Assembly: GCA_024137785.1 (NCBI GenBank)
Contig: JAHRHZ010000021.1
Location: 25,995,321-26,059,320 of the forward strand
DNA: 64,000 bases
Direction: 5' to 3'
Source of the DNA: Ginglymostoma cirratum
Lineage: Eukaryota
Shown here: piece after piece, positions 1-62,532 of the stretch
Layout of the letters: each line of letters begins with the position of its first letter
Position numbering within the stretch: position 1 is the stretch's first letter
The notes under the pieces: model-generated
What the model was told of the DNA's origin: nothing
Databases searched by the model: none
The model's input: the letters and a program-made list of their open reading frames with translations, nothing else
Program-made: the position numbers and the translations under genes

Positions 1-247
1 GGAAAATTACTTGTTAGCGGGTAGCCAATCTGACACCGAGCCAGTCTCCCTTAACACGGTTCTAGATCAGGATAATCCAGACCTCCGGCTGTTTTAAAAG
101 TTCTGTCCCTGTTATCAATGAACCTGACATGCCATCATCAAAGATAATCGGAACTGCAGATGCTGGAGAATCCGAGGTAACAAGGTGTAGAGCTGGATGA
201 ACACAGCAGGCCAAGCAGCATCATAGGAGCAGGAAAGCTTGACGTTT

Positions 248-647
248 NNNNNNNNNNNNNNNNNNNNNNNNNNNNNNNNNNNNNNNNNNNNNNNNNNNNN
301 NNNNNNNNNNNNNNNNNNNNNNNNNNNNNNNNNNNNNNNNNNNNNNNNNNNNNNNNNNNNNNNNNNNNNNNNNNNNNNNNNNNNNNNNNNNNNNNNNNNN
401 NNNNNNNNNNNNNNNNNNNNNNNNNNNNNNNNNNNNNNNNNNNNNNNNNNNNNNNNNNNNNNNNNNNNNNNNNNNNNNNNNNNNNNNNNNNNNNNNNNNN
501 NNNNNNNNNNNNNNNNNNNNNNNNNNNNNNNNNNNNNNNNNNNNNNNNNNNNNNNNNNNNNNNNNNNNNNNNNNNNNNNNNNNNNNNNNNNNNNNNNNNN
601 NNNNNNNNNNNNNNNNNNNNNNNNNNNNNNNNNNNNNNNNNNNNNNN
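248..647. other. Assembly gap (400 N)
   Basis: Run of N; same length as the second gap, so probably a placeholder size. Confidence 0.99.
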
Positions 648-686
648 GGAGCTGGATGAACACAGCAGGCCAAGCAGCATCATTTT

Positions 687-714
687 CTGATGAACGGTCC
701 AGGCCCGAAACGTC
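687..714 (+). ncRNA. Minimal type-I hammerhead ribozyme motif (family A)
   Basis: CUGAUGA-A-CGGUCCAGGCCC-GAAA-CG-UC; core intact, one mismatch at base of stem II. Confidence 0.7.
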
Positions 715-2918
715 AAGCTTTCCTGCTCCTATGATGCTGCTTGGCCTGCTGTGTTCATCCAGCTCTACACCTTGTTACCATGCTATCATCAAACTGAGGT
801 TTTGCAGCCAACTTTAGGTTGGACTGATGGTCTGCCACAAACTAGCCCTATATACGCACGCGTTTTCCCAACAGTTCCAACTCAAAATGCTAACTTTTAG
901 CATAAGGGGAAAGGCATCTTGAAGAACCCTGTTTTTGTTCACATTAAAGGATTGAAAAGGATGTTGAGGAAGTACTGAGATTGAGTAGAAAGGGTTAAGT
1001 TTATTTCACTTGTCTTTAGCACACCTTGAAATTAGATAAGAACCTGGCTTTTCCGGCAATTGCTTCACATTCCAGATCAACTGGCATGGAATAGAAAGTG
1101 AGATGTTTACAAATAAATGCAGATACTTCTATATTTCTATCTTTAGCGTCCTTCAACATTAAGTGTGAATGATGTCAGAGCAAGTGAAAGCTTTAATCAA
1201 ACTAACTCTGTATTAAAATGCAACACTTCCTCGCTGGTATTGAATGTGCCAGTATAATATATCTTAAAAACTATAAAGTTCAAAAAATGAAACATCAATA
1301 TAGAAATTAAAGGAGATAACACTGTGGAGTTCAAAGTCTGGAGAGTCAGTTGGTAATGATTTTCCCAAAAGTGAAATATAATTTATAAACACTGGCATCT
1401 GCGCAAGTAAAAAGAATTGTCAGAAGTAAATAAAGAATTAATTACTTTTTCTGGCCATAATGTTTTATCTTCACAGGTGAGAAACATCTTTCGGCTCTGA
1501 ATCAGTTGATTACAGATCCCCACCAGTCATTTTGTAACACAGAAAAAGACAGTTTTAAACTGCAAAGCAAAGCAAAATGGTTAAATTACAGTAAAAGGGG
1601 ACATTGAAATGAGTTAATCACTGAACAACTTTTTTAAAATCAAAAATTATTTCTACAAGAAAGGTGAAACAAGTAAGTTCAAGAAAAAGTATGTTCCTTA
1701 ATTCCTAGCACAAGTTCAAAATAAATAGTCCTTTTCCCATAGTTATTAGCAAGCTCATTTAAGCATCGTGAAGACTGGCTAAAATATGCACCATTTAATT
1801 TCTCAACTTCACAATTGGGAATTGTCACTCAGAGATTGGTGTAATTGGTAAACAAAACGATAAGACTTTGTTGCCTGGTTATAGTAACAGATAAATATGA
1901 TTCATACAGTACTTTAATTATGTCATAAGTTGGCTCAGTCAGCTTTATTCTCCATGTAGTACACTGGTATAGTATTGCCAACACAGCAATTCATGAAACA
2001 AGAAGCAAAATTACTTCTCATGAGATCTCTGTGCTCATATCTGGGTCTGTACCTTAAATAGAATAGTGTATCTTTTTGACAAAGCTTCTTGCCATATGCC
2101 CTTATCTCTTCCTAATGATGTTTGCTGTTATTATCATTATTTCCCCTGAAGTACTATACACTATTTTACTGCAAATTGACATGACCGAGTACATACTCAA
2201 GCTAGCTAAAGCTGCTCATCAGAGACAAGTACAGAATATTATAGGAAACACGCATCTACACCCACACAGTTTGTTTCTAAGCAGCTCAGTTCTCCAGAAC
2301 ACTAAGTCTTTCCACACTTATGCAAAGAGACTGGCTTTTTGCCAAAGCTTGGCTTCTGTTCAAGTGCTCAATCTGTTTAGAATTCCCAGGTGCAAATGTA
2401 TTTTCAAGCCTATTCATGGTTATTTGCATTTTTTCTGCTTATTGCTTTGAATTGTGAACAATCAGCTTGCTGCATGTTGCAAAGTTTTTCCACATTAGGT
2501 CATTTTTATATGGTCATGGGCTATCAATAAACCATTCACAGAGACAACAATCATGCCTTCCTGGGACAATTTCAGTGATCACTATTTTACTGAAATATTT
2601 CAGGATCGTGCACGTGCAATGTGTATATATAAGCATTAGGTTCAAGTTACAATATATACTATAGGTTCTGTCTAGCCCAATTGGAAAAACACAACAATTC
2701 TACTTCTTAAATTAATGGATATCAGTCTGTCTGTCTACAAAAACCTTGGCTGTACACTCCCAATCCGGTAAATCCCAAGATTCTACTCCACCTTAAACAC
2801 ACAATTTTGTCCTTCTCCTCATTTATAGGTTGCTGTCCTTAAAAGAAATATAAGAAAAGAAAGTATATCTGAAGAATCTTTCACATCCCATGAAATTGTT
2901 GATTATTGATGAATTATT

Positions 2919-4846: not shown

Positions 4847-5112
4847 ATAGAATCATAGAGTCATATAGCATGAAAACAGACCCTTCAGTCCAATTATTCC
4901 ACACCAACCATTTTCCCAAACCAAACTAGTCCCACGTGCCTGGGTTTGACCCATATACCTCCAAACCTTTCCTATTTAGGTACTTCTCCAAATGTCTTCT
5001 CAAATTTGTAACCGTACCTGCACCCACCAATTCTTCTGGAAGGTCATTCCACACACAAACCTCTCGCTGTTTAAAAACGTTGCCCCTCATGCCTTTTTTA
5101 AACCTTTCTCCA
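4847..5112 (-). mobile_element. CR1-clade LINE 3' end
   Basis: catagaatcatagagtcata tail and cccttcagtccaa; reverse complement of a CR1 3'UTR. Confidence 0.75.
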
Positions 5113-5476
5113 TCTTGTCGGATCTTATTCTAAATCCAAGTTCCACACAGCCCTGAATATCTTAACTAACTATTAAACTATACACTCGCCACTTATGTTT
5201 TTTTTTGCCTTAGCTCTTTTTTTGTGCTTAGCTGTTTGTTTCTACTGGGCTTGTACTTCCCTCTCTCTTGCTCTCCTCCATTTTGTCCATTAATCTCTGG
5301 TTCCTTTGTCTTAGACCATCACATTCCTCCTCATGTTCTTCTTTGCCACATCTGTTCTTATCATTTGTGTAATAACAACCGAAAGAACTGCGGATGCTGT
5401 AAATCAGGAACAAAAACAGAAGTTGCTGGAAAAGTTCAGTAGGTTTGGCAGCATCTGTGAAGAAAAAATCAGAGTT

Positions 5477-5506
5477 AACTTTTTGGGTCCAGTGACTCTT
5501 CCTCAG
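5477..5506 (-). ncRNA. Hammerhead motif (family B, degenerate)
   Basis: Minus strand gagtt-CUGAGGA-A-GAGUC-ACUG-GACCC-AAAA-AG-UU-aactc; 5-bp stem I, but G12 is mutated. Confidence 0.55.
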
Positions 5507-5521
5507 AACTCAGCTCCAGTT

Positions 5522-5551
5522 CTGAGGAAGGGTCACCGGACCTGAAACATG
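5522..5551 (+). ncRNA. Hammerhead motif (family B, degenerate cleavage triplet)
   Basis: agtt-CUGAGGA-A-GGGUC-ACCG-GACCU-GAAA-CA-UG-aact. Confidence 0.6.
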
Positions 5552-7725
5552 AACTCTGATGTTTTTCTTCATAGGTGCTGCCAGACATGTTGAGCTTTTC
5601 CAGCAACTTCTATCTTTGTTTCTAATCATTTGTGTACCTCCTTTACCTTCATTTCTTATTTGCCCTCTTTGTCATCCACTCTGACTTACAAATTTGCTTT
5701 CCTGATCATCTTTTGCTCATTCAAGAATCCAAAAGTACTTCTTTTACCAGCCTCCTGTTCAGAGGGGCACAAATGATAATCGAAAGAAAAGCAAAATATG
5801 CTTAATTTTATTTTGAGATCCATAATGTTAAACAAGGAAGCAATCCAGGTCTACCAAGCAAGGATCCAAATGTACCATCTGCATCCAGGGAACTGTTTAA
5901 AATTAGTACAACATGGTAACAAAAATATTTTCTGCAGAAGCACTAAATTAGCCATTCAGCAAAAATAATCTTCATCTACTGTCACTAGTGTGAAAGGGTA
6001 TTTAAATAGGAAATAAGAACTCCTGTTACATTTATCTGCAGAGAACCAAATACTTTCATGGTAAAACAAAAGGTTCAATCCCAGTATTTACCATTAGGAG
6101 CAATATTTTTTAAAAATGCTTTTTGATTCCATATTTTAAATCATAATTATTCAAAATGTTATTTAAAACTAAAATTAAAAAGAAAGCTAGGTGGAGTAGA
6201 GCCAATTGCTTCTTAACAAATCCATTTTAATCACTCTTGCAAGTACAGTGACATTTGCACTAAAATGTTGCATCAATCCACTGCTACATGTAGGTTAATT
6301 TTAAATCAAGTTTAATTGTCTCAATGACTGATATAAGAGAAATCATTTATGGGAATGACTGAGTCAGTCAATCGAGTTGTTTGAGTCCTGTGTCTGTAAT
6401 GTGTAAGATAGCTGTAGCCATTAGTTCAAAACCTCTTGGGTGGACTTGACACAGGGCCCTCACAGCTGATAAATCTCATCAGTCAGGTTATGTTTTCTCT
6501 GAGTTGGTTTTCTGACAAGAATATGCTGACCTTTTTAAGGCACTATCTTGTGAGACTATAATATGGATTTCATCAAACTCATTAGGAGTTCTAACTGTAT
6601 GAAAGTTTGCACAGCCTGTGAGTTACACTCTTCGACTGTGCCTAGAGTGCAGCTATGAATAAGTCAAACTCCTTGACAAAATTTCATTTGTACCTTTTTG
6701 CATTGAATGTATGAACATTACTGATTGATAACAAGATTTTTAAAAAATGGTGTAAATGGAAAGGCCACAGACAAAGCATTACATCAACAAAATATACCTG
6801 CTATCTCAAGCTTCAGTGCCTTTATTCAAGCATATGGAATCCTTGAATTTATAGATAAATGCAGAGTGCAGAAGTCTAAATGTGTTACAAATTCATCTTT
6901 CAAATTTGTTGATATTTTGTTGTCAGCGCAAATTATCATTATCTCCTGCAATAGTGAGCATGTTGAGGTTAATCAGCATGTAAGACGGAATATTACAGAA
7001 TAAATGAGGGGATTTAGGTATACCGTAAAATAATGCAAATATCACAAATATTGAGTGCTAATCTAATTCATGAAGGATGGCAGCGTACAAAAACAACTGT
7101 TTGGCTTTGCCTCATATCTTTGTTACTTCTCAAAGTAACCATGCATGGAGTTTTTCTACCAAATACACTGAAGTCTCCTAAAATATCTTACTTTATATCC
7201 TGTTTCAGGGGTGGGCTTGTATGGATTGCCAACGTTGAATGAGAAAAATTTCCCCAGTTACAGAATGTCATTTCAAGGTCTTTTTCTAAGCGATGGAAAA
7301 TCGCCTAAAGTTTCTTGAGCATTCACACATACAGTCATTCATACTGAATAACGCTTTTACATTGTCTCTGCAATCTCATCTCATATCATTTCCCCAGTCT
7401 TCATCCTCCCAAGAAACATTCCATGTAGATCTTCAAAACTAACTTGCACAAGTTTTACTTTTGCATCTGTTCAGTTATCAGTTATTTATGTCTATCAGTG
7501 TTGACAAGGCCAGTTATTAATGGCTAACCAATCTAAGTGTCTAAATCCTTATCAGGCTATTGGACCACAGGGTTGTTCATTGGTGTGACTTCTCTTCTAC
7601 ATCCAGATGCTAACATGTATCTTAATTAGGCAAGGTTAAATGAAATAGTATCATAGCTTTTGGTATGCTTGTTTGTTAATGTATCCAGTTGCACAATCAC
7701 TTTTGCAGAGGCCTAATTTGACCAT

Positions 7726-9180
7726 GGAGACAGTTGGGACTGCAGATGCTGAAAGCTACAGTCAATAAATGTGGATCTAGAAATGCACAGCCAGTCAGAG
7801 AGAATCGAGGAGCAGGAAAGTTAATGTTCTGGCCTGAAACCTTTTGTCAGGACTGGGAGGTGGAGAGGAGCCCAGAAATAAATAGAGGGAGGGGTTGGGG
7901 CTGCAGGGGGAGTAGGTGAGTTGGAGATATGTCGAAGCAGGTAGAGAGTTATTGTGGTTGGTCATTGGGAAGGGTGGAATGGATAGGTGAGTCAGAAGAT
8001 AGATGAGTCAGTGGGAAGGGAAATATCATTATGGTGGTTGGGTCTGATTGTCAGTAGTGGAAATGTCGGACGATGATGCTTGTATTCAAAGGTTGGTGCG
8101 GTGGTATGTGAGGAACAAGGGGACTCTATCCTTATTGTGGTTGAGGGGAGAGGGCTTGAGGGCAGAAGCATGGGATATGGGGGAGATGTGGTTGAGGGCA
8201 TCCTTAATAACAGAGAAGGGGAAACGATGGTCTCTAAAGATATCTGGGAAGTCCTAGAGTAGAACGCCTCATCCTGGGAGCAGATGCGGCAGAGACAGAG
8301 GGATTGTGAGTATAGGATAGAATTTTTACAGGAGGTATAGTGGACTAACCTCGGAATGCAACGCATCACCCTCTGACATTTCCACCACCTACAATCAGAC
8401 CCCATCACCAAACAGATATTTCCCTCCCCACCCTGTCCGCTTTCCACAGGGACTGTTCACTCCACGACTCCCTCATCAGCTCCACACTCCATACCTACCC
8501 CTCCACCACACCCAGTACCTTTCCCTGGAGAGACCATCCACAGGAGGTGCTACACCTGCTCCCATTCCTCCCCTCTCATCTCAGTCCAAGGCATCAAACA
8601 ATCCTTCCAAATCCGGCAGAGATTCACCTGCACGTATCTAACCTCATCTAATGTATCCGTTGCTCCCGATGTGGTCTCTATAACAGGCAGACCAAACGCA
8701 GACTCGGGAACCAGTTCATGGAGCAGCTGTGCTCTGCATGCACCAACCAACCCCACCTTCTGGTTGCCATCCCCCTTCCACTCCCCTGGCAACATGTCCA
8801 TCCTTGGCCTCCTCCACTGTCAGAGTGAGGCCAAATGTAAACTAGAGGAACAACATCTGATATTTCACCTTGGGATCTTACAGCCCAATGGACTCAATAT
8901 TGACTTCACCAGCTTCAAAATCTCTCCTCCCCCAAACTGTCCATCCTCTATCTGCTCCACGCTTCCCACTGACCAACCACAATAACCATCTACCTGCCTC
9001 CACCTACTTCCATCTGATGTACCCTCCCCCAGCCCCACCCCTCTCCCTTTATTCATTTCTGGCACCCCTGCCCCTTCCTAGGGTTCCCAGACGAAGGCTT
9101 TCAGCTCAAAATGTTGACTTCCCTGCTCCTCGGATGCTGTCTGACTGGCTGTGCTTTTCCAGCTCCACATTTATTGACCA
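7726..9180. mobile_element. Penelope-like element remnant in fold-back arrangement (minus arm 7726-~8340, plus arm ~8343-9180)
   Basis: Minus-arm translation RICSQDEAFYSRTSQ and plus-arm MSILGLLHCQSEAKCKLEEQHLIFHLG match the PLE at 28.3-30.7 kb; both ends are PLE 3' termini; perfect 12-bp TSD taatttgaccat at 7714-7725 and 9181-9192. Confidence 0.88.
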
Positions 9181-10067: not shown

Positions 10068-10285
10068 CAGAGATAGAAATAACTGCCGATGCTGGAGTCT
10101 GAGAGAACACAGTGTGGAGTTGGAGGAACACTGCAGGCCAGGCAGCATTAGAGGAGCAGGAAAGCCGACGTTTCCGGTCAGGACCCTTCTTCAGAAAATG
10201 AAGGGTCTCAACCCAAAGCAGCAACTTTCCTGTTCCTCTGATGCTGCCTGGCCTGCTGTGTTCCTCCAGCTCCACACTGTGTTAT
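10068..10285. mobile_element. PLE-terminus-derived fold-back element, family A variant
   Basis: ~85-bp inverted arms centred near 10197; degenerate 14-bp TSD atgagatggatgat (10054-10067) / ataagttggatgat (10286-10299). Confidence 0.88.
10167..10194 (-). ncRNA. Hammerhead motif (family A)
   Basis: Minus strand CUGAAGA-A-GGGUCCUGACCG-GAAA-CG-UC. Confidence 0.65.
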
Positions 10286-15647: not shown

Positions 15648-15787
15648 TGAGGAAGGGTCACCGGACCCGAAATGTTAACTCTGTCTTTTCCTTCACAGAT
15701 GCTGCCAGACCTGGTGAGCTTTTCCAACAACTTTGTTTTTGGTCCTGATTTACAGCATCCGCAGTTCTTTCTTTCAACTTTTATTCA
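15648..15787 (+). mobile_element. Single-arm family B PLE terminus with hammerhead remnant and tail
   Basis: Begins tgaggaagggtcaccggacccgaaatgtt; perfect 10-bp TSD gtaggtccct at 15638-15647 and 15788-15797 inside the CR1. Confidence 0.88.
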
Positions 15788-16512: not shown

Positions 16513-16666
16513 AGAGAGAAATCTCCATTCTGGAATCAGGTCACTGGACCCAAAACGGTAACCCTGATTTCTCTCCACAGGTGCTGTCAGACCTGCAGAG
16601 CTTTTCCTGCAATTTCTGCTTTTGTTTCTGATTTCCAGCATCTGCAGTTCTTTCAGTTTTTTAGGG
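16513..16666 (+). mobile_element. Family B PLE terminus with tail
   Basis: ggtcactggacccaaaacg...ccagcatctgcagttc; TSD aataaatgg at 16504-16512 and 16667-16675. Confidence 0.82.
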
Positions 16667-21429: not shown

Positions 21430-22295
21430 CACACCTCCCAAATCTGACCCCCCTCTTAACATTCTTGTGTAGGCTTAAATCACTTAGAGATGCTAGATGC
21501 TAGAGTCAGAGTCAATACAGTGTGGAGCTGGAGGAACACAGCANNNNNNNNNNNNNNNNNNNNNNNNNNNNNNNNNNNNNNNNNNNNNNNNNNNNNNNNN
21601 NNNNNNNNNNNNNNNNNNNNNNNNNNNNNNNNNNNNNNNNNNNNNNNNNNNNNNNNNNNNNNNNNNNNNNNNNNNNNNNNNNNNNNNNNNNNNNNNNNNN
21701 NNNNNNNNNNNNNNNNNNNNNNNNNNNNNNNNNNNNNNNNNNNNNNNNNNNNNNNNNNNNNNNNNNNNNNNNNNNNNNNNNNNNNNNNNNNNNNNNNNNN
21801 NNNNNNNNNNNNNNNNNNNNNNNNNNNNNNNNNNNNNNNNNNNNNNNNNNNNNNNNNNNNNNNNNNNNNNNNNNNNNNNNNNNNNNNNNNNNNNNNNNNN
21901 NNNNNNNNNNNNNNNNNNNNNNNNNNNNNNNNNNNNNNNNNNNCTAAGTGATTTAAACCTACACAAGAATGTTAAGAGGGGGGTCAGATTTGGGAGGGTT
22001 GGTCATGGGATGAGGCTGGGGGTGGGGAGATTTTGAAACTTGTAAAGTCCACATTAAGACCATTGGATTGTAGGCTCCCGAGGCAGAATATGAGGTGCTG
22101 CTCCTCCAGTTTCCGCGTGGTGTCGTTGTGACACTGGAGGCGGCCCAGGATGGACATGTCACCCAGGGAGTGGGAGGGGGAGTTGTATAGCTGCTGCTAT
22201 ACAAAGCAGTCTCCGAGCCTCTGCTTGGTCTCACCAATGTAGAGGAGGCCACATCAGGAGCAGTGGATGTGCAGGTGAACCTCTGTCTGATGTGA
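21430..22295 (-). mobile_element. Penelope-like element remnant with inverted segment, spanning gap
   Basis: 22020-22295 encodes a GIY-YIG C-terminus on minus (YIGETKQRLGD; KLEEQHLIFCLG); 21434-21487 is the reverse complement of 21944-21996; family A terminus at 21488-21543. Confidence 0.75.
21544..21943. other. Assembly gap (400 N)
   Basis: Run of N. Confidence 0.99.
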
Positions 22296-22419
22296 AATTT
22301 GCAGGAAAAAGCAGGTTCATTGTTTAAATGTGCAATTGTTCAAAAAGCCCCGGCAAGTGGCTGTAGATAGTATACACTGGTATACCTAGCACCTTTAAGA
22401 GAGGGGATTCTGGATTTTC

Positions 22420-27654: not shown

Positions 27655-27862
27655 ACTTGAATAAAATCAAAAGTTTGCAGATGATGGAAATGCGAAAGAA
27701 ACACAGAGAATGTTGGAGAAACTCAGCATGTCTGGCAGCATCTGCAGAGAGAGAAACAGAATTAGCGTTTCGAGTCATACAGGACTTGAAATGTTGACTC
27801 AGTTTCTCTCTCTACAGATTCTGCCAGATATGCTGAGTTTCTGCAACATCCTTGGCATTTGT
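27655..27862. mobile_element. PLE-terminus-derived fold-back element, family B-like (older)
   Basis: Inverted arms (actcagcatgtctggcagcatctgcagagagagaaac / gtttctctctctacagattctgccagatatgctgagt) joined within the hammerhead stem II region near 27780. Confidence 0.8.
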
Positions 27863-27976
27863 TCAAAACAAATTATTTGATCAGTATTGAAACAGTGATT
27901 GTGGGCATTTTCTGTGTGCTTATTATCTGCTGTATTTCTAGAATTACAACAGTGACTACACTTCAAAAAAATGCTT

Positions 27977-28219
27977 TCTTCGGGCCTGAAACTGCATGTC
28001 CTGAAGCCACCCTCGCCTCTTTGACCTGTCTGTCTCCTCTCCACCTATCTTCTCCTTTATCCATTTTCTATCCGCCTCCCCCCTCCTCCCTAGTTATTTC
28101 AGAATCCCCTTCCTCTCCCCCATTTCTGAAGAAGGGTCTAGGCCCAAAACGTCAAGCTTTCCTGCTCCTCTGATGCTGCTTGGCCTGCTGTGTTCATCCA
28201 GCTCTACACCTTGTTATCG
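27977..28219 (+). mobile_element. Family A PLE 3' terminus with hammerhead remnant (28126-28153)
   Basis: Near-identical to 30470-30670; perfect 13-bp TSD caaaaaaatgctt at 27964-27976 and 28220-28232. Confidence 0.9.
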
Positions 28220-28292: not shown

Positions 28293-30678
28293 ATTAACCA
28301 CGAGCCTAACCCTCCCTCTACTGACCCCTTCTCCCGCCTCCAACACACCCCCTCCTCCTGGACACCACCCCAAGGCCTCCTACCCTCCCTTGACCGCTTC
28401 ATCTCTAATTGTCGTCGAGACATCGATCGCCTCAAACTTTTCACCCCTCTCACCCACTCCAACCTCTCTCCCGCAGAACGTGCAGCCCTCCGCTCCAATC
28501 CCAACCTCACCATAAAACCTGCGGACAAAGGAGGCGCTGTTGTAGTATGGCGTACTGACCTCTACATCTCGGAGGCCAGGCACCAACTCTCTGACACCAC
28601 CTCCTATCACCCCCTTGATCATGATCCCACCCATGAGCACCAAACCATCATCTCCCAAACCATCCACAACCTCATTACCTCACGTGACCTCCCACCCACA
28701 GGCTCTAACCTCATCATTCCCCAACCCCGCACCGCCCGCTTCTATCTCCTTCCCAAAATCCACAAACCTGACTACCCTGGTCCACCCATTGTCTCCGCCT
28801 ACTCCTGCCCCACTGAACTTATTTCCACCTATCTGGACTCCATCTTCTCCCCCTTGGTCCAGGAACTCCCTACCTACGTCCATGACACCACCCACACTCT
28901 TCACCTCCTCCAGAACTTCCAATTCCCCAGTCCCCAACACCTCATCTTTACCATGGACGTCCAGTCCCAACACCTGCATTCCCCATGCTGATGGCCTAAA
29001 GGCCCTCCGCTTCGTCCTGTCCCACAGGCCCAACCAGTCCCCCTCCACTGTCACCACTTAGCTGAACTCGTCCTCACACTCAACAACTTCTCTTTCAATT
29101 CCTCCCACTTCCTATAGACAAAGGGGGTGGCCATGGGTACCAGCATGGGCCCAAGCTATGCCTGCCTCTTTGTAGGATACATGGAACAATCCCTCTTCCA
29201 AAACTACACTGGTCCTATACCCCATCTCTTCCTCCGTTACATTGATGACTGTTTCGGCGCTGCCTCGTGCTCCCACTAGGAGCTCGAACAGTTCATCCAC
29301 TTCACCAACACCTTCCACCCCAACCTTAAGTTTACCTGACCATCTCTAATACCTCTCTCTCCTTCTTGGACCTCTCTGTCTCCATCTCTGGCATCCACCT
29401 GGAAACCGATATCCATTTTAAGCCTACCGACTCCCACAACTACCGAGAATACACCTCCTCCCATCCACCTTCCTGTAAAAAGGCCATCCCCTATTCCCAA
29501 TTCCTTCGCCTCCACCGCATCTGCTCCCGAGATGAGGCATTCCACTCCCGAACGTCCCAGATGTCCTCATTTTTCAAGGACCGCAACATTCCGTCCACAG
29601 TGATCGAAAATGCCCTCGACCGTGTCTCCCGCATTTCCCGCAACTCATCCCCCACACCCCCTACCTGCTATAATAACCGAAACAGAATCCCTCTCGTCCT
29701 CACATACCACCCCACCCAACCTCCGAATCCAACGCGTTATCCTCCGACATTTCCGCCATCTGCAATCTGACCCCACTACCAAAGACATTTTTCCCTCCCC
29801 ACCCTTATCTGCTTTCCGGAGGAACCACTCTCTCCATGACTCCCTTGTCCGCTCCACACTCCCCTCCAGCCCTACCACCCCTGGCACTTTTCCCTGCAAC
29901 CGAAGCAAATGCTACACCTGCCCCTACACCTCCCCCCCTTATCCCCATCCCAGGCCCCAAGAAGACCTTCCACATCAAACAGATGTTCACCTGCACATCT
30001 GCCAATGTGGTATACTGCACCCGCTGTACCCGTTGTGGCCTCCACTACATCGGGGAAACCAAGCAGAGGCTTGGGGACCGCTTTGCGGAACACCTACGCT
30101 CAGTTCGCAACAAACAACTACACCTCCCAGTTGTGAACCATTTCAACTCACCCCCCTACTCCTTGGATGATATGTCCATCCTGGGCCTCCTGCATTGCCA
30201 CAATGATGCCACCCGAAAGCTTCAGGAACAGCATCTCATATTTTGCTTGGGAACCCTGCAACCCAAGGGTATCAATGTGGACTTCACAAGCTTCAAAATC
30301 TCCCCTCCCGATGACATCTCAAAACCAGCCCAGCTAGTCCCCACCTCTCTAACCATTCCTCCCACCTCAAGCCCCACCCCCATCTCCTCCCGCCGCCTTG
30401 ACCTGTCTGTCCTCCCTGGACTGACCTATCCCCCACGTTAATCCCCACCTACATTCACCTTCACTGGCTCTAACCCCGCCTCTTTGACCTGCCTGTCTCC
30501 TCTCCACCTATCTTCTCCTTTATCCATCTTCTATCCACCTCCTCCTCTCTCCCTATTTATTTCAGAATCCCCTTCCCCTCCCCCATTTCTGAAGAAGGGT
30601 CTCGACCCGAAACGTCAACTTTCCTGCTCCTCTGATGCTGCTTGGCCTGCTGTGTTCATCCAGCTCCACAACGTTTTA
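28293..30678 (+). mobile_element. Penelope-like retroelement (RT + GIY-YIG, Neptune-like), 5'-truncated, frameshifted
   Basis: IKPADKGGAVV, FYLLPKIHK, KGVAMGTSMGPSYA, LRYIDD, Cys linker CNRSKCYTC, VVY...YIGETKQRLGDRFAEH; perfect 12-bp TSD ctacaaatctaa at 28281-28292 and 30679-30690. Confidence 0.95.
30589..30616 (+). ncRNA. Minimal type-I hammerhead ribozyme motif in the PLE 3' terminus (best-preserved copy)
   Basis: CUGAAGA-A-GGGU-CUCG-ACCC-GAAA-CG-UC; perfect stem II, palindromic ACGU stem III, GUC triplet. Confidence 0.8.
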
Positions 30679-51294: not shown

Positions 51295-51545
51295 TCATGA
51301 AGGAAAGCAAATCCCACAACATTCCATACAGATTTCCAAGCAGTCCGAGGACTCGCAGCAGGCATCCATAATGCCACAATCCATGTCACAAGGGCAATTA
51401 CAATCATCCCCAAGGTCATCTGCTCCACAACAGCAGCAACAGTTTTCAGATGTACAGATACCACAGGAAGCTTGTCCCAAGATAATGTTGCAGAAGGTGA
51501 CGAACTCACAGAATAGGCAGGTGAGAATGCAGTGTACACAGCCAT
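51295..51545 (-). CDS. MDFIC: MyoD family inhibitor domain-containing protein, terminal coding exon (I-mfa domain)
   Basis: (D)GCVHCILTCLFCEFVTFCNIILGQASCGICTSENCCCCCG...CDMDCGIMDACCESSDCLEICMECCGICFPS*; polypyrimidine acceptor tttttctcccccacttgaag at 51565-51546, phase-1 intron. Confidence 0.95.
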
Positions 51546-51719
51546 CTTCAAGTGGGGGAGAAAAATGCAAATTACCATACATATCACAGATCGCAGTGGG
51601 AACAGGACAGGGAAGCAAAGCATGGCATCATACAATAGCAAGACAATAGATAACACCAAGTTAAAACACACTAAAAGATGTTTCCTAATTAGCAGTGATG
51701 TACAATGATCATTTTGCTA

Positions 51720-53675
51720 CCAAAAAGACGAATTATTTGAGAAATCTACAGGAGTCATACAAATTGAAAGAAAGCAGCAGATCAGAGAATTGGGAGCAGT
51801 TCAGATTTCAAAAATGGAGGACAAATGGTGAAAATAAGTACAAGAGTAAGTTTGCGGGGAACACAGAAACTGATTATAAAAGTTTCTTTAAGTATGTGAA
51901 GTGAAAAAGGTTACTGAAGAAGAAACATATGTCCCTTACAATCAGAATCAGGAATATTATAAAGGGAACAAAGATGGCAGACCAATTAAATATATATTCT
52001 GATTCTGTCTTTACAAAAACAATTCAGGGAACACTGGGTCTAATGAGTGGGAGGAACTGAAGGACATCAGCATTGTTATGGAAATAAAGGGAATTAAAGA
52101 CTTATAATGATAATCCACATCACAGAGTTCTTATGTAAGTGGCCCTAGAAGTAATGGACGTATTGGCAGACATCTTTCAAGATTCTTCAGGCTCTGAAAC
52201 AGTTATTACAGTTTAAAGGGTGTAGCTAATGTAACCCCACTATTTAAAATTGGAGGTTGAGAGAAAACATGGAATTATTGACCAGTTGGCCTAAAATTCA
52301 TAGGAAAATGCTAAACATCTGTTCTAAGATATTTAACAGCAGAACATTTGGAAAAGTGACAATCAGACAGAGTCAGCACGAATTTACGAAAGGGAAAATC
52401 ACACTTGACACATCTACTGGATTTGTTCACTCACTCAAAATTGTCCAAATCACATGTAAAGCCCTCTGCATCTTCCTCACAATTCACCCTCCCAGTCAGC
52501 TTTGTGTTGTCTGCAAACTTGGAGATATTGAGGATGTATCTAGTAGAATTGATAAAGGGGAGCCAGTGGGTATGGTTTACTTGGACTTTCAGAAAGCTTT
52601 CAATAAGGTCCCATATAAGAGATGAGCATGTAAATTTTAAAGTGCATGGATTGAGGGTAGTATACAGACATTGGTAGAGAACTGGGTGGCAGACAGAAAA
52701 CAAAGAGTAGGAACGGGCATATTAAAAATGGGCCTTTTAGTGAGTGGAAGCCAGCGATCAGTGGGTACTACAGCGATCAGTGCTAGGAACGCAGCTGTTC
52801 ACAATATGCATATTAATAATTTAGAGAAGGAAGCTAAATGTAGTATCTCCAAGACTGCAGATGGCACAAAACTAGATGGGAGGGTGAGCGGTGAGGAGGA
52901 TGCAGAGATGTTTCCGTGTGATTTGGACAAGTTGAATGCGTGGGCAAATGCATGGACGCTGAAATAAAGTGTGCAGAAATGAGAAGTTATCCACTTTAGT
53001 AGCAAAAACAGGAAGGCAAATTACTATACGAATGGCAATACGTCAGGAAGGGGGACAGGTACAATAAATTGACTATAGGAATAGACATGTCTTGCTGTAA
53101 TTGCGTGGCGCCTTGAGGAGACAACACCTGGAGTATTGTGGGCAGCTCCAGTCTCCTTATCTAAGGATGGATGTGCTGGCTATGGAGGAAGTGCAACAAA
53201 GGTTTATGAGATTGATTCCTGGCATCGCAGGAATGGCATATGAAGAAAGACTGGATTTATATTCACTGGAGTTTTAGAAGAATTGCGGGGGGTGGTCGGG
53301 CAGTGAGATCTCATAGAAACCTATGAATTCTAACAGGATTAGACAGGGTGAATGCAGGAAGGATGTGAGCAAAGACTGGGGAATACAGAACCAGGGCTCA
53401 CAGTCTAAGGATACAGGGTACTCAATTTAGGACTGAGATGAGGAGAAATTTCTTCACCCAGAAAGGGGGGAACCTGTGGAATTCTCTGCCACCAAAGGAA
53501 GTTAAGGTCAAAACATGGAATGTTTTGAAAAGTTAGATATAGTTTTTAGGGCTAAAGGGATCAAAGGATAAGCAGAGAAAGTGGGAACAGAGTACTGAGT
53601 TAGATGAGAAATTCAACAGTGGTGTAGGCTCAAAGTGCCAAATTACCTGTTTGAACTCATTTTTTCTATATTTCT
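51720..53675 (+). mobile_element. CR1-clade LINE in last MDFIC intron (antisense to gene)
   Basis: YLDFQKAFNKVP, SKTADGTKLDG, CDLDKLNAWANAW; CR1 3' tail. Confidence 0.9.
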
Positions 53676-55903: not shown

Positions 55904-56107
55904 GTCAGAACTCACACGACACCAAGTTGTAGTCAAACAGGTTTACTTGAGATCACAGGCTTTCAAAGTGCTGCTCCTTTGTCAGGTGATGAAGGAGCAA
56001 CGCTTCGAAAGCTTGCGATTTCAAAAGAAAACCTGTTTGACTATAACCAGGTGTCGTGTGACTCCTGACTTTGTCCACCCCAGTCCAACACTGGCACCTC
56101 CACATCG
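55904..56107. mobile_element. Hammerhead-bearing fold-back element, family C
   Basis: ~82-bp inverted arms centred at 55985/55986 plus an ~38-nt tail on the right arm; no clean TSD; PLE origin inferred from architecture only. Confidence 0.8.
55986..56014 (+). ncRNA. Hammerhead motif (family C; C3 lost at junction)
   Basis: (G)UGAUGA-A-GGAGC-AAC-GCUUC-GAAA-GC-UU; palindromic AGCU stem III; degenerate mirror copy at 55957-55985 starts CUGA. Confidence 0.6.
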
Positions 56108-57256: not shown

Positions 57257-57402
57257 GAGACAGTAGGAACTGCAGATGCTGGAGAATCTGAGATAACAAG
57301 GTGCAGAGCTGGATGAACACAAGGTCTCGGCCCGAAACGTCAGCCTTCCTGCTCCTCTGATGCTGCTTGGCCTGCTGTGTTCATCCAGCTCTACACCTTG
57401 TT
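57257..57402. mobile_element. Family A fold-back element with central deletion
   Basis: 28-bp inverted arms; hammerhead 3' half ggtctcggcccgaaacgtc; 14-bp TSD aattSacaatctca at 57243-57256 and 57403-57416. Confidence 0.88.
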
Positions 57403-58024
57403 AATTGACAATCTCATTCAGCTGCAGGCTCTTAGTGCTCAGAATACTAACCTGTAACTGGGTTTTCCTTTTCACTGACAGTTTCACCAACAGGTTAATC
57501 CCATTTTAAGCATAGGTGTGCTCCTGGGAACATATCCCTAAGACCTACTGCTTCTCACCAGAACAAGGTAGTCATACGGTCACCTACTTTTTGCTTCAAA
57601 TTCACCATTCACAGCAATCAGAGCAGTGGCACAGGTCTACAGAAACAATGAAATTCTATTGCTAGTCAACATACAAGAATAATAACTCCTACTCTATGTT
57701 TGTTTGTTCTCGGTAGCAGCCTGACATTGTTGAAATGTTAAGATGAGTGCAAAACAAAGTATAGAACTAGTATTACGGCCAGCAGGGCGCAGATGTGGAG
57801 GAGGTGGATTTCCTAGTATTTGTCCTCAACGACAGTTGCCAAAACTATTAAACATTAAACATGCAAGAAAAAAACCGGAAAGCTCTTAGAATCCCAGAAT
57901 ACAGCAAAGACAGATATGGGGCAATTAGAGATTAGCACTAAATGCTGGCCTAGCCATCAACACCCACATTCTATGAAAAAATATAAAGAGAAATATTGCA
58001 ATAGATGATTGGTCATGCAAGAGA

Positions 58025-60004: not shown

Positions 60005-60741
60005 GGTATAACACCGACCCATTAACTTTCTCCCTCCTCCGTATCCAAGGGCCCAAATGCACCTTCCAGGTGAAGCAGCATTTTACATCCATTTCACTGA
60101 ATCTGGTCTACTGCATTCGCTGTTCACAATGTGGTCTCCTCCAGAGAAGCACAGACTGGTAACTACTTCACAGAACACCTATGCTCTATCCACAAAAAAG
60201 ACCCTGAGCTTCCAGGTGCCTGCCACTTCAACACACCATCTTGTTCTTTGGCCAACGTCTCTATCTCAGGCTTGCTGCAGTACTCCAGCAAAACTCAGGA
60301 CAAGCTGGAAAAACAGTACCTCATTTTTTACTTGGGAACTCTACAGCCTTCTGGACTGAATGTCAAGATCAACAATTTTAGGGCTTGAGGCACCTTCCCT
60401 CATGCCAACCCACACACACCAGGCCTAGTTATCACACGGTCTCATATTATGCACAACCCATTGTGAGCCACTAACAGTCCCCGTTAATAGTTATTCACTC
60501 TCCTAGCCAGATCGTTATCCACTCCTTTGTCCTTCCATCTGTCCTTCTCTCTCTTTAGTCTCTATCTCCACCTATCGTTTGCTCCTTACCCCCGCCCCAC
60601 CCATCTTCTGCATAAGAAAATGACTTTTTCCTAGCTACCATCAATTTGGAGGAAGGGCACTGGACCCAAAACATTAATTCTGATTTCTCTCTACAGATGC
60701 TGCCAGACCTGTTGCGTTTTCCAGCAATTTCTGTTTTGTTT
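60005..60741 (+). mobile_element. Second Penelope-like family, GIY-YIG 3' fragment with family B terminus
   Basis: FTEHL...CHFN...SISGLLQ...KLEKQYLIFYLGTLQPSGLN; terminus with degenerate hammerhead at 60647-60675; interrupts a minus-strand SINE (~59950-61040). Confidence 0.85.
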
Positions 60742-62532
60742 ATCCCAAAGTGTCTTTGAAGTAAATATCTTGCATGATCATTTCATTAGGCAATTAAAAG
60801 TCACCACACATTGCTGTGGGCCTGGAGTCACATGGAGCCAGACCAGGTAAGGATGGCAAATATCCCTCTTATGATGGATACCAGGGGACCAGATGGGTGG
60901 ACCAAATGACGACAGTAATAGTTACCATGACACAGAGAGGGTTTCAATTCTTGATTTATTAATGTAATTTATATTTCACTAGTTAATGTGGTTGGACTTA
61001 AACTCATGTCTCTAGAGTATTAGTCTGAGCTACTGGAAGTCCACTACCTTCTGTCTACAAATTCCATAAAAAGATATATGGCTCAGAAAAAGGGCATTAA
61101 ACCCAATCAGTTCATTGTGTTGTCTACAGTGCACTCAATGCTTTTTTTGCTCTGAAATAGTTGTGCTATTACTTTTAAGGGTAAGCTGATACTGAACGGA
61201 AGCAGCTTTACTCTGACTTTGCTTTGGTCTAGAATCAGGCCTGACACACTGGATTTGCATTATTCTAAAGTCAAAAACCTCAGTTTTCTGAATCTGAAAC
61301 TGAAACTAAGTGACTTTAGACACAGAATCCATTTTTCCAAGATACAGTGTTGGTGTTGGTGGGGAAGAAAGATCTGTCTGCACCACAGACCAGTGAAAGC
61401 TTCATTTAAGACTAAATTAGGTTACTCATCAATTATTAACAGCCACAATATAAAACAGGACCTGTTTTAAAGCATCCTTTTAGAATCTCTGCAAGTTTCT
61501 TTTTCTTTCTAAAATTTTGATCTCCAGTGTAACCAACAATCATGCTAAAGGTTAATGCATCTTTCTTACTTTCCCTGGAGATGACATAGTCAAAAGTCAG
61601 TGAAAGTAATAGCAATTTAAATATTGTATTAATTGGTAGATCTATCCAGCAATCTTCAATGTCATTTTGGGATTTTAAACTATTTCTTTCACCCTTCACC
61701 ACAGTTTCAAAGCAGGGATACACATTTAAAATCTTCCAAACATAGGCCAGTGTTATTATGATAAAGGAAGGATTGAGGTGCAAAAATCCCAACTTCTGCT
61801 GATCATAATGTTCACAGACACAGAGTAATTTATTTAATGTCTGACCATCAGTTAGCTTTATACTTTAGATGGTTCTCTTGGAAACCCATCAGTGATCTAA
61901 TGGGAAGTAGGCAGGAAGGGAGAGCTGAAGTCCAGGATAAGGCACGATCATGCTAAATTATATGTTACAGTCCTCATCCTATTTTTGCGATTTTGGGAGT
62001 GGTGTTGAAAATATAGAAATGAGCTTGCTGGTCAGGTTGACAAGATTACTGCTACATCTCTAAATGGGAAAAGAAGTTGGTTACTTCCTATGGCAGTAGA
62101 AGAAGAAAAGGAAAGATGCAAAGACTATCAGAATGTTTATTGCAAGACTAACCAAGCGCTAACCAAGATTTCAGTGTCAAGATGGATGAAAAACTGGCAT
62201 ACTGAACCAAAGAACTGTGACATTGTTGCATGGTTTTGTATTTCTCTTATTCATAAGGAGAAATTTTAGGTTAAGTGAATAGTTTCTTTTTACAGACCAG
62301 TCACTCTCCAATTCCTTTGTGATCTACACAATAAAGTAACAATGATTTTATATCTGACCTCACCACATTGAAGTACTTTGACCAACCTACCAAACAAAAA
62401 CTGGACAAGTGCATGAGGGGGCTTACACAAAAGCCAAAATGTTGAATTCAGGTCACCAATGTTATTGTTGACACTCCTTCCATGCACACCCCACCCCCAC
62501 CATCCACTATGATTAGTAATTGTATTGGTCAG

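Follow-up and report, generated by a model that had tools for sequence, protein, structure and literature searches.

Head-to-head Penelope-like insertions with a one-sided tail and two classes of 3' end in Ginglymostoma cirratum

Described systems and identity of the inserted copies

Penelope-like elements (PLEs) of the Penelope/Poseidon type are described in PMC3846280 and PMC8557442 as strongly 5'-truncated, head-to-head inverted pLTRs with a tail of 30-40 nt on one end and a target-site duplication (TSD), bearing a pLTR hammerhead plus a GIY-YIG endonuclease at the C-terminus. The same characters were found in the insertions analyzed here, including the optional tail of 30-40 nt, the inverted 5'-truncated copy at the 5' end and the TSD, within a 64-kb stretch of Ginglymostoma cirratum DNA (the window). 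The one-sided tail is a real feature and a known hallmark of PLEs, already in print in both papers. Short 3' extensions and a 34-bp repeat have also been reported (PMC8969392, PMC2377424), and PMC8557442 describes the origin of the inverted, one-tailed insertions as undefined. Unlike the published Penelope/Poseidon copies, most copies in the window are cut down to two pLTR stumps of 65-135 nt.

For PAc, a Poseidon element of an Anolis lizard, in vitro work (Frangieh 2024, PMC11167929) reported two internal reverse transcriptase (RT) start sites bounding the tail, with both target strands cut and extended, a predicted protein dimer and no strand difference in start-site use. Two internal start sites bounding the tail, with cutting and extension of both strands, would be shared by PAc and the window copies, and AT-rich targets are a further likeness. 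The available text of PMC11167929 reports no test of site pairing within one event and does not treat inverted dimers, and no statement that both strands use opposite sites in one event was found in the open-access literature.

Twin and dual priming with internal duplications are known for L1 (PMC2837659; bioRxiv 2024.08.27.596794). As in L1, both target nicks would prime cDNA in the window dimers, microhomology joins the cDNA ends and one arm starts upstream; outer ends apparently primed by target nicks, a single TSD pair and microhomology at the centre were all found. In contrast, L1 finds its second site through chance complementarity, in most cases far upstream, and a deletion is the usual outcome, whereas the second site in the dimers is fixed about 34 nt upstream, and both arms therefore copy nearly the same segment. 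A poly(A)-primed first cDNA, a variable second site and an internal deletion were not found in the dimers, whose arms overlap almost wholly and, unlike L1, carry no poly(A) tail.

Short hammerhead-bearing sequences related to PLE pLTRs have also been described as non-LTR retrozymes (bioRxiv 2026.07.22.740005). Retrozymes form head-to-tail tandem arrays. The window copies occur instead as single stumps or in inverted pairs, and no hammerhead-bearing units in head-to-tail tandem were found among them. This layout, together with the ORF remnants in two copies (7726 and 60011), suggests truncated PLE copies rather than retrozymes.

The Penelope identity assigned to the copies in the original prediction is upheld by the copy at 28297-30678, which joins the short arms to a coding element. 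KPADKGG and YIDD are visible in its translations, and a Pfam GIY-YIG match on 29947-30309 (E 0.001, 19.8 bits, under the curated cutoff of 22.6, in a decayed copy) sits downstream of the YIDD motif, that is, C-terminal to the RT. The Atlas grouped its N-terminal frame with eukaryotic clusters of RT fragments, the first match (0.97) being a 'reverse transcriptase fragment' with PF28514 in 74% of members, and a Pfam search of three fragments returned no RT match. Remnants of the same ORF occur in the dimer at 7726-9179 and in the copy at 60011. A hammerhead core (CTGANGA-hairpin-GAAA, one mismatch allowed) was located in arms at 687, 5522, 28126, 30589, 55986 and 10194, among others; this loose pattern also matches unrelated places, and an Rfam search of the window gave no hammerhead match and three weak miRNA-hairpin matches on palindromes. 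Judged from these sequence motifs, the arms are 5'-truncated pLTR stumps of Penelope-like elements of the C-terminal endonuclease type with a putative hammerhead.

Two classes of 3' end and target-site duplications

Self-comparison and seeded searches of the window yielded seven head-to-head dimers and ten other copies (Table 1), and every copy located in the original prediction was recovered within a few bases of the position given there. The sense strand was defined as the strand with the hammerhead core, on which basis the 5' truncation points are inner and the 3' ends outer. All seven dimers combine one long with one short 3' end. The overhang of one arm over the other, given in the original prediction as about 30-40 nt, was 34-40 nt in 7/7, with values of 34, 34, 34, 36, 40 and 36 nt for the six dimers with a long left arm and about 38 nt for family C. 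The long arm is on the left in six dimers (143, 5372, 7726, 10068, 27655 and 57257) and on the right in the family C dimer at 55904-56107 only; a preference of the tail for the left arm (6:1) was dismissed as chance (p=0.125).

The expectation of two preferred 3' end positions held in the window and again in contigs of relatives. Measured from a common CCAGC anchor, 21 ends lie at a distance of 19-25 (n=11) or 54-64 (n=10) with none intermediate, and a gap of such size between end clusters appeared in 0/200000 uniform draws. These ends were placed by hand via TSDs or the end of homology, with 4/21 (38088, 45119, 45415 and 60745) placed without a TSD. The count excludes family C, which has another anchor and whose ends were classed as long or short by comparing its two arms. 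Also excluded is 21488-21543 (offset 44), an arm whose boundary is obscured and adjoins an N gap. Single arms comprised four long and five short ends, plus the tailed arm at 21488, which would make five of each. The occurrence of mixed ends in 7/7 dimers has P=0.008 under a free 50:50 choice per arm and P=0.037 on permuting the 14 arms, with only seven dimers, all within the window, behind these pairing statistics. Both arms of a dimer belonged to the same subfamily in 7/7, and compared over the core the arms were 80-83% identical (5372, 7726, 10068, 27655 and 55904); those of the focal dimer at 5372 are about 110-135 nt long and 83% alike.

Table 1. Penelope-like copies in the window, with strand and target-site duplication (TSD).
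Feature	Position	Strand	Remarks
Focal dimer, left TSD copy	5355..5371	+	13 bp core, 17 with ambiguous edges; p=0.003
Focal dimer, left arm, family A Penelope pLTR 3' stump, hammerhead core, long end	5372..5508	-	tail ~5372-5405
Focal dimer, right arm, family A, short end without tail	5514..5623	+	begins 2-9 nt further 5' than left arm (by eye)
Focal dimer, right TSD copy	5620..5636	+	direct repeat
Family B dimer over N gap (248-647), long left, short right	143..778	.	15-bp TSD 128-142 / 779-793
Head-to-head dimer of 1.45 kb, long left (internal deletion), short right; ORF remnants from thumb and GIY-YIG region	7726..9179	.	12-bp TSD
Family D dimer, long left, short right	10068..10285	.	14-bp TSD, 2 mismatches
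Family E dimer, long left, short right	27655..27864	.	14-bp TSD, 2 mismatches
Family C dimer, short left, long right	55904..56107	.	tail 56070-56107
Family B dimer, long left arm only ~65 nt	57257..57404	.	14-bp TSD; short right arm ~50 nt further 5'
Single arm, long end	15648..15787	+	10-bp TSD
Single arm, long end	16538..16666	+	TSD at least 9 bp; ~25 nt extra at 5' side
Arm with tail, followed after an N gap by an antisense Penelope ORF remnant	21488..22297	-	excluded from counts
Single arm, short end	27978..28219	+	13-bp TSD
2.4-kb 5'-truncated Penelope-like copy, short end	28297..30678	+	DKG, YIDD RT motif, thumb, C-terminal GIY-YIG, pLTR with hammerhead core; 12-bp TSD
Single arm, long end	38088..38222	-	TSD looked for, none
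Single arm, short end	40676..40748	+	15-bp TSD
Single arm, short end	45119..45221	-	TSD looked for, none
Single arm, long end, absent from the original prediction	45415..45517	-	TSD not significant
Single copy, GIY-YIG-region remnant, short end	60011..60745	+	TSD looked for, none

Compared with a null of 391 random sites, TSDs exceeded chance in 6/7 dimers (four at p=0.003 and two at p=0.04) and in 5/9 single arms tested, while a TSD was looked for at the family C dimer and none was found. One TSD pair encloses the whole dimer in 6/7. The duplications are 71% AT, against 61% for the window, and measure 9-15 bp, which differs from the 8-10 bp given for rotifer Penelope (PMC3846280); the mean at L1 loci is 14 bp (PMC2837659). 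The original prediction had invoked a twin-priming-like mechanism to explain a 'long' TSD. This argument was not sustained, since TSDs of the same 9-15 bp flank single arms and such lengths are ordinary for target-primed insertion. In three organisms, orthologous contigs agree with the flank exactly as far as position 142 and continue for 0.9-3.4 kb without an arm match; this is read as an empty site, which would fix the long end of the 143 dimer at 143.

Several copies have further peculiarities. In the 143 dimer, the part of the left arm before the gap (143-247) shares 72 nt with the right arm at 100% identity, and the gap is followed by another, shorter piece of left arm (648-683). Its 400-N gap may be spurious, produced by an assembler reading into a palindrome, and part of the left arm may have been copied from the right arm during assembly. 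In the left arm of the 7726-9179 dimer, at 7986-8011, the pLTR jumps to ORF sequence and omits about 640 nt present in the right arm, which reflects either a post-insertion deletion or a template jump. At 16513-16537, roughly 25 nt separate the single arm from its left TSD; they begin with a few letters antisense to the element and may represent a tiny internally primed second arm. A 54-bp inverted duplication (21434-21487 / 21944-21997, 98% alike) lies astride the N gap between the tailed arm and the antisense Penelope ORF remnant, and is either a mis-assembly or a fold-back copy of the flank.

The window as a whole has 40% GC and two 400-N gaps. It also contains the last coding exon of an MDFI-family gene at 51295-51627 on the minus strand (Pfam PF15316 MDFI, E 3e-41), which marks the DNA as vertebrate, and a decayed LINE remnant at 52108-53242, which we take from its motifs to be CR1-like and in which a Pfam search found no match. 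An inverted piece within this remnant (~52418-52527) is possibly due to twin priming in another family.

Ends in related genomes and RNA structure at the start sites

In order to compare end positions beyond the window, public contigs of four runs of relatives (34,853, 104,246, 111 and 1,189 contigs) were aligned to window positions 1-247, which carry one long arm. Among the six best places per run, loose contig ends on the flank side clustered at 142-150 (long) and 174-179 (short) in runs X1, X14 and X23, the strongest being 142 and 150 for the long class and 174, 178 and 179 for the short class. In X15, which has few and distant copies, other places (186, 200 and 202) stood among the best six. 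X23 may be RNA and was not counted as evidence of transcription, and no RNA record was listed for window positions 5000-7500. Among the places listed, long versus short ends numbered 757+540 versus 2216+2526 in X14, 146 versus 690+594+231 in X1 and 11 versus 18+27+15 in X23; short ends are commoner in these figures, but the reference biases the ratio, which is accordingly unreliable. The exact end bins follow private letters of the reference, and the data are thus to be read as two main clusters and not as a full histogram.

Tandem-type ('goes back') joints restart at 137-150 or 172-179 in nine of the listed entries, with several others at 186-200, suggesting that the RT re-initiates at the same two sites, as tandem pLTR formation would give. 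Opposite-strand joints of a long with a short end were seen at (142,174), (137,178), (138,174), (142,176) and (129,178), amounting to five entries and 57 contigs among those listed (11 contigs in X1 and 46 in X14, each at about single-copy depth), and would represent tail-to-tail junctions. No long-long or short-short joint was present among the 15 of 26 entries listed. The commonest opposite-strand joint is consistent with the long end folding back over 4 nt onto the start of the tail, AGAT at 142-145 being the reverse complement of ATCT at 170-173 (majority letter at 173).

The start regions of family B at 142/150 and 174/178 read TCAG-AGATA and TCTG-AGATA on the cDNA strand, which makes them a near repeat at a spacing of 34 nt; in addition, their first five letters are reverse-complementary to each other. 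A pattern scan of viral contigs gave 0 matches. Scans of metagenome and genome contigs gave 22 and 18 matches, none of which continues into a Penelope arm, and all 40 were dropped as chance.

RNAalifold applied to nine long arms predicted a single helix, a 7-bp stem between an upstream GAUGCUG and a CAGCAUC in the tail, with the short site inside the stem; behind the stem, at about 18-25 nt, comes the long site. The named pairs hold in 84% of cells versus 19-54% when slid. Covariation in the stem was not significant (35-115 of 500 shuffles were as high), single-sequence folds were no better than shuffles (z -1.45 to +0.4), and family C folds a different stem at a like position. By eye, CAUGGCC/GGCCAUG in the PAc template RNA (PMC11167929) likewise forms a stem of 7 bp, the 3' strand of which ends a little ahead of the start site reported at +111-118; this RNA also has two GAAAG boxes spaced by 34 nt. 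Fig. S1B of that paper may show the stem already. The predicted stem enclosing the short site is regarded as a lead, and it may have a role in the mechanism. The tail alone as a hairpin whose base marks both sites was not supported (z -1.4 to +0.9 in 11/11). Compared with the preceding block as a degenerate repeat, the tail gave p<0.05 in 4/11 and scored above the preceding control block in 9/10, which is only a hint of such a repeat.

Origin of the one-tailed dimers

Double target-primed reverse transcription (TPRT) with one start site per strand gives one-tailed dimers and is the probable source of these insertions, which would be abortive events of a Penelope-like retrotransposon. According to this scheme, the GIY-YIG endonuclease would cut the target strands about 12-15 nt apart, as the TSDs suggest, leaving two 3'-OH ends. 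Each 3'-OH would prime cDNA on element RNA, starting from either of two fixed internal positions separated by about 34 nt, and within one event the strands would use different sites, probably through two RT subunits side by side on one RNA, either side of the stem over the short site. Both cDNAs would stop early, often at or near the hammerhead, and be joined head to head via 1-5 nt of microhomology, after which fill-in would produce a palindrome with a tail on one arm and a TSD. Extension of one strand only would give a single arm, long or short. The process would resemble L1 twin priming with a fixed second site and a large internal duplication. The original prediction had proposed two priming sites, one on each target strand. 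Its first element agrees with the two fixed RT start sites observed in vitro for PAc (PMC11167929), and its second, the presumed use of one site per strand, fits 7/7 dimers and the comparison of dimer centres given below. The mechanism it put forward is, in our judgment, probably a fair synthesis, supported by the dimer centres and the opposite-strand joints; the tail asymmetry was already known, and these two lines of evidence, with the predicted stem over the short site, are the new additions here.

Fold-back by self-priming with endonuclease trimming, in which a staggered cut about 34 nt apart on a cDNA hairpin leaves one tail, is unlikely. It lies near published proposals of self-priming (Arkhipova 2013, PMC3846280) and endonuclease-mediated resolution (Craig 2021, PMC8557442), and its geometry by itself yields strict long/short pairing. 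The long-short opposite-strand joints fit a long 3' end folding onto the tail start, and self-priming may occur at some rate. Self-copying of a tailed, target-primed cDNA requires that the unpaired centre belong to the tailed arm. The tail-less arm reached further 5' in 5/7 dimers. The margin was about 50 nt at 57257 and, for the post-gap piece, at 143, but 2-12 nt, as read by eye, at 5372, 27655 and 55904; of the two large-margin cases, 143 adjoins an N gap and 57257 is the cleanest. The tailed arm reached further 5' in the remaining 2/7, by about 8 nt at 10068 and about 250 nt, with an internal deletion, at 7726. These centres argue against simple cDNA fold-back, as the loop needed on the tailed arm fails in 5/7; a loop always on the short arm fits 5/7, but a fixed cut geometry predicts 7:0 and 5:2 was seen. 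Moreover, direct target-primed initiation at both sites has been shown in vitro (PMC11167929), and the similarity of TSD length between dimers and single arms is in keeping with target ends as primers.

From the centre test, both arms need a full-sequence template, which speaks for two cDNAs, each templated by RNA and united through a short overlap, whereas PMC3846280 and PMC8557442 favour self-priming or endonuclease resolution. Overlaps of 1-5 nt were found by eye at the centres of 143, 10068, 27655 and 57257, and at the 27655 junction (27766-27790) both strands of hammerhead stem II form a 5-nt overlap (by eye). The hammerhead core, or a point just 5' of it, is where many arms end, which suggests stalling of the RT and not ribozyme cleavage.

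Dual priming could also be uncoupled, with two RNAs or RNPs and an independent choice of site on each strand, such that the 7/7 mixed dimers are small-sample luck. Dual priming has been proposed for L1 (PMC2837659), start sites show no strand difference in vitro (PMC11167929), and the arms at 57257 differ at family-polymorphic position 188 (T/C, 15% of depth in X1), a hint of two RNA templates; the arms at 143 share rare letters, though possibly through assembly copy. Independent choice is nonetheless distinctly improbable: P=0.008 applies at 50:50 and falls lower if short ends are commoner, the outer-end opposite-strand joints are all long-short among the entries listed, and the tail is described as often present at one end only (PMC3846280).

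Insertion in two steps, with a second copy homing into an earlier one, or subsequent loss of one tail, is very improbable. Recognition of element DNA containing the tail has been reported for the endonuclease (cited in PMC11167929), and the tail-to-tail joints could be homing events, but a single TSD pair surrounds both arms in 6/7 dimers, both arms are of the same subfamily, and short ends abut the TSD at a fixed rather than random position. An assembly artefact at palindromes, for which N gaps with duplicated inverted sequence at two loci (143 and 21488) might speak, is scarcely credible, given that arms of comparable dimers are only 80-83% identical, six dimers are gap-free and the end clusters recur in independent public runs.

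Under double TPRT with one start site per strand, about 200 bp of dimer preserve the two priming sites of an event together with its two stop points, and relatives are rich in such copies, with 34,853 and 104,246 contigs aligned to one arm. The rival mechanisms can therefore be counted in a good assembly and tested in the PAc assay. RNA-templated genome writing would be a further field of relevance for a retroelement able to extend the two strands of a break from fixed sites within its RNA. A stronger version, which we put forward tentatively as a serious possibility, is that double TPRT is obligate in Penelope, with an RT-endonuclease dimer bound to the conserved two-box, one-stem structure of one RNA and each subunit working at its own fixed site, so that every inverted insertion would carry exactly one tail. 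If so, the tail would be the spacing between the subunits, the inverted pLTR would be the product of the second subunit, and the origin of the inverted structures of PLEs would be settled.
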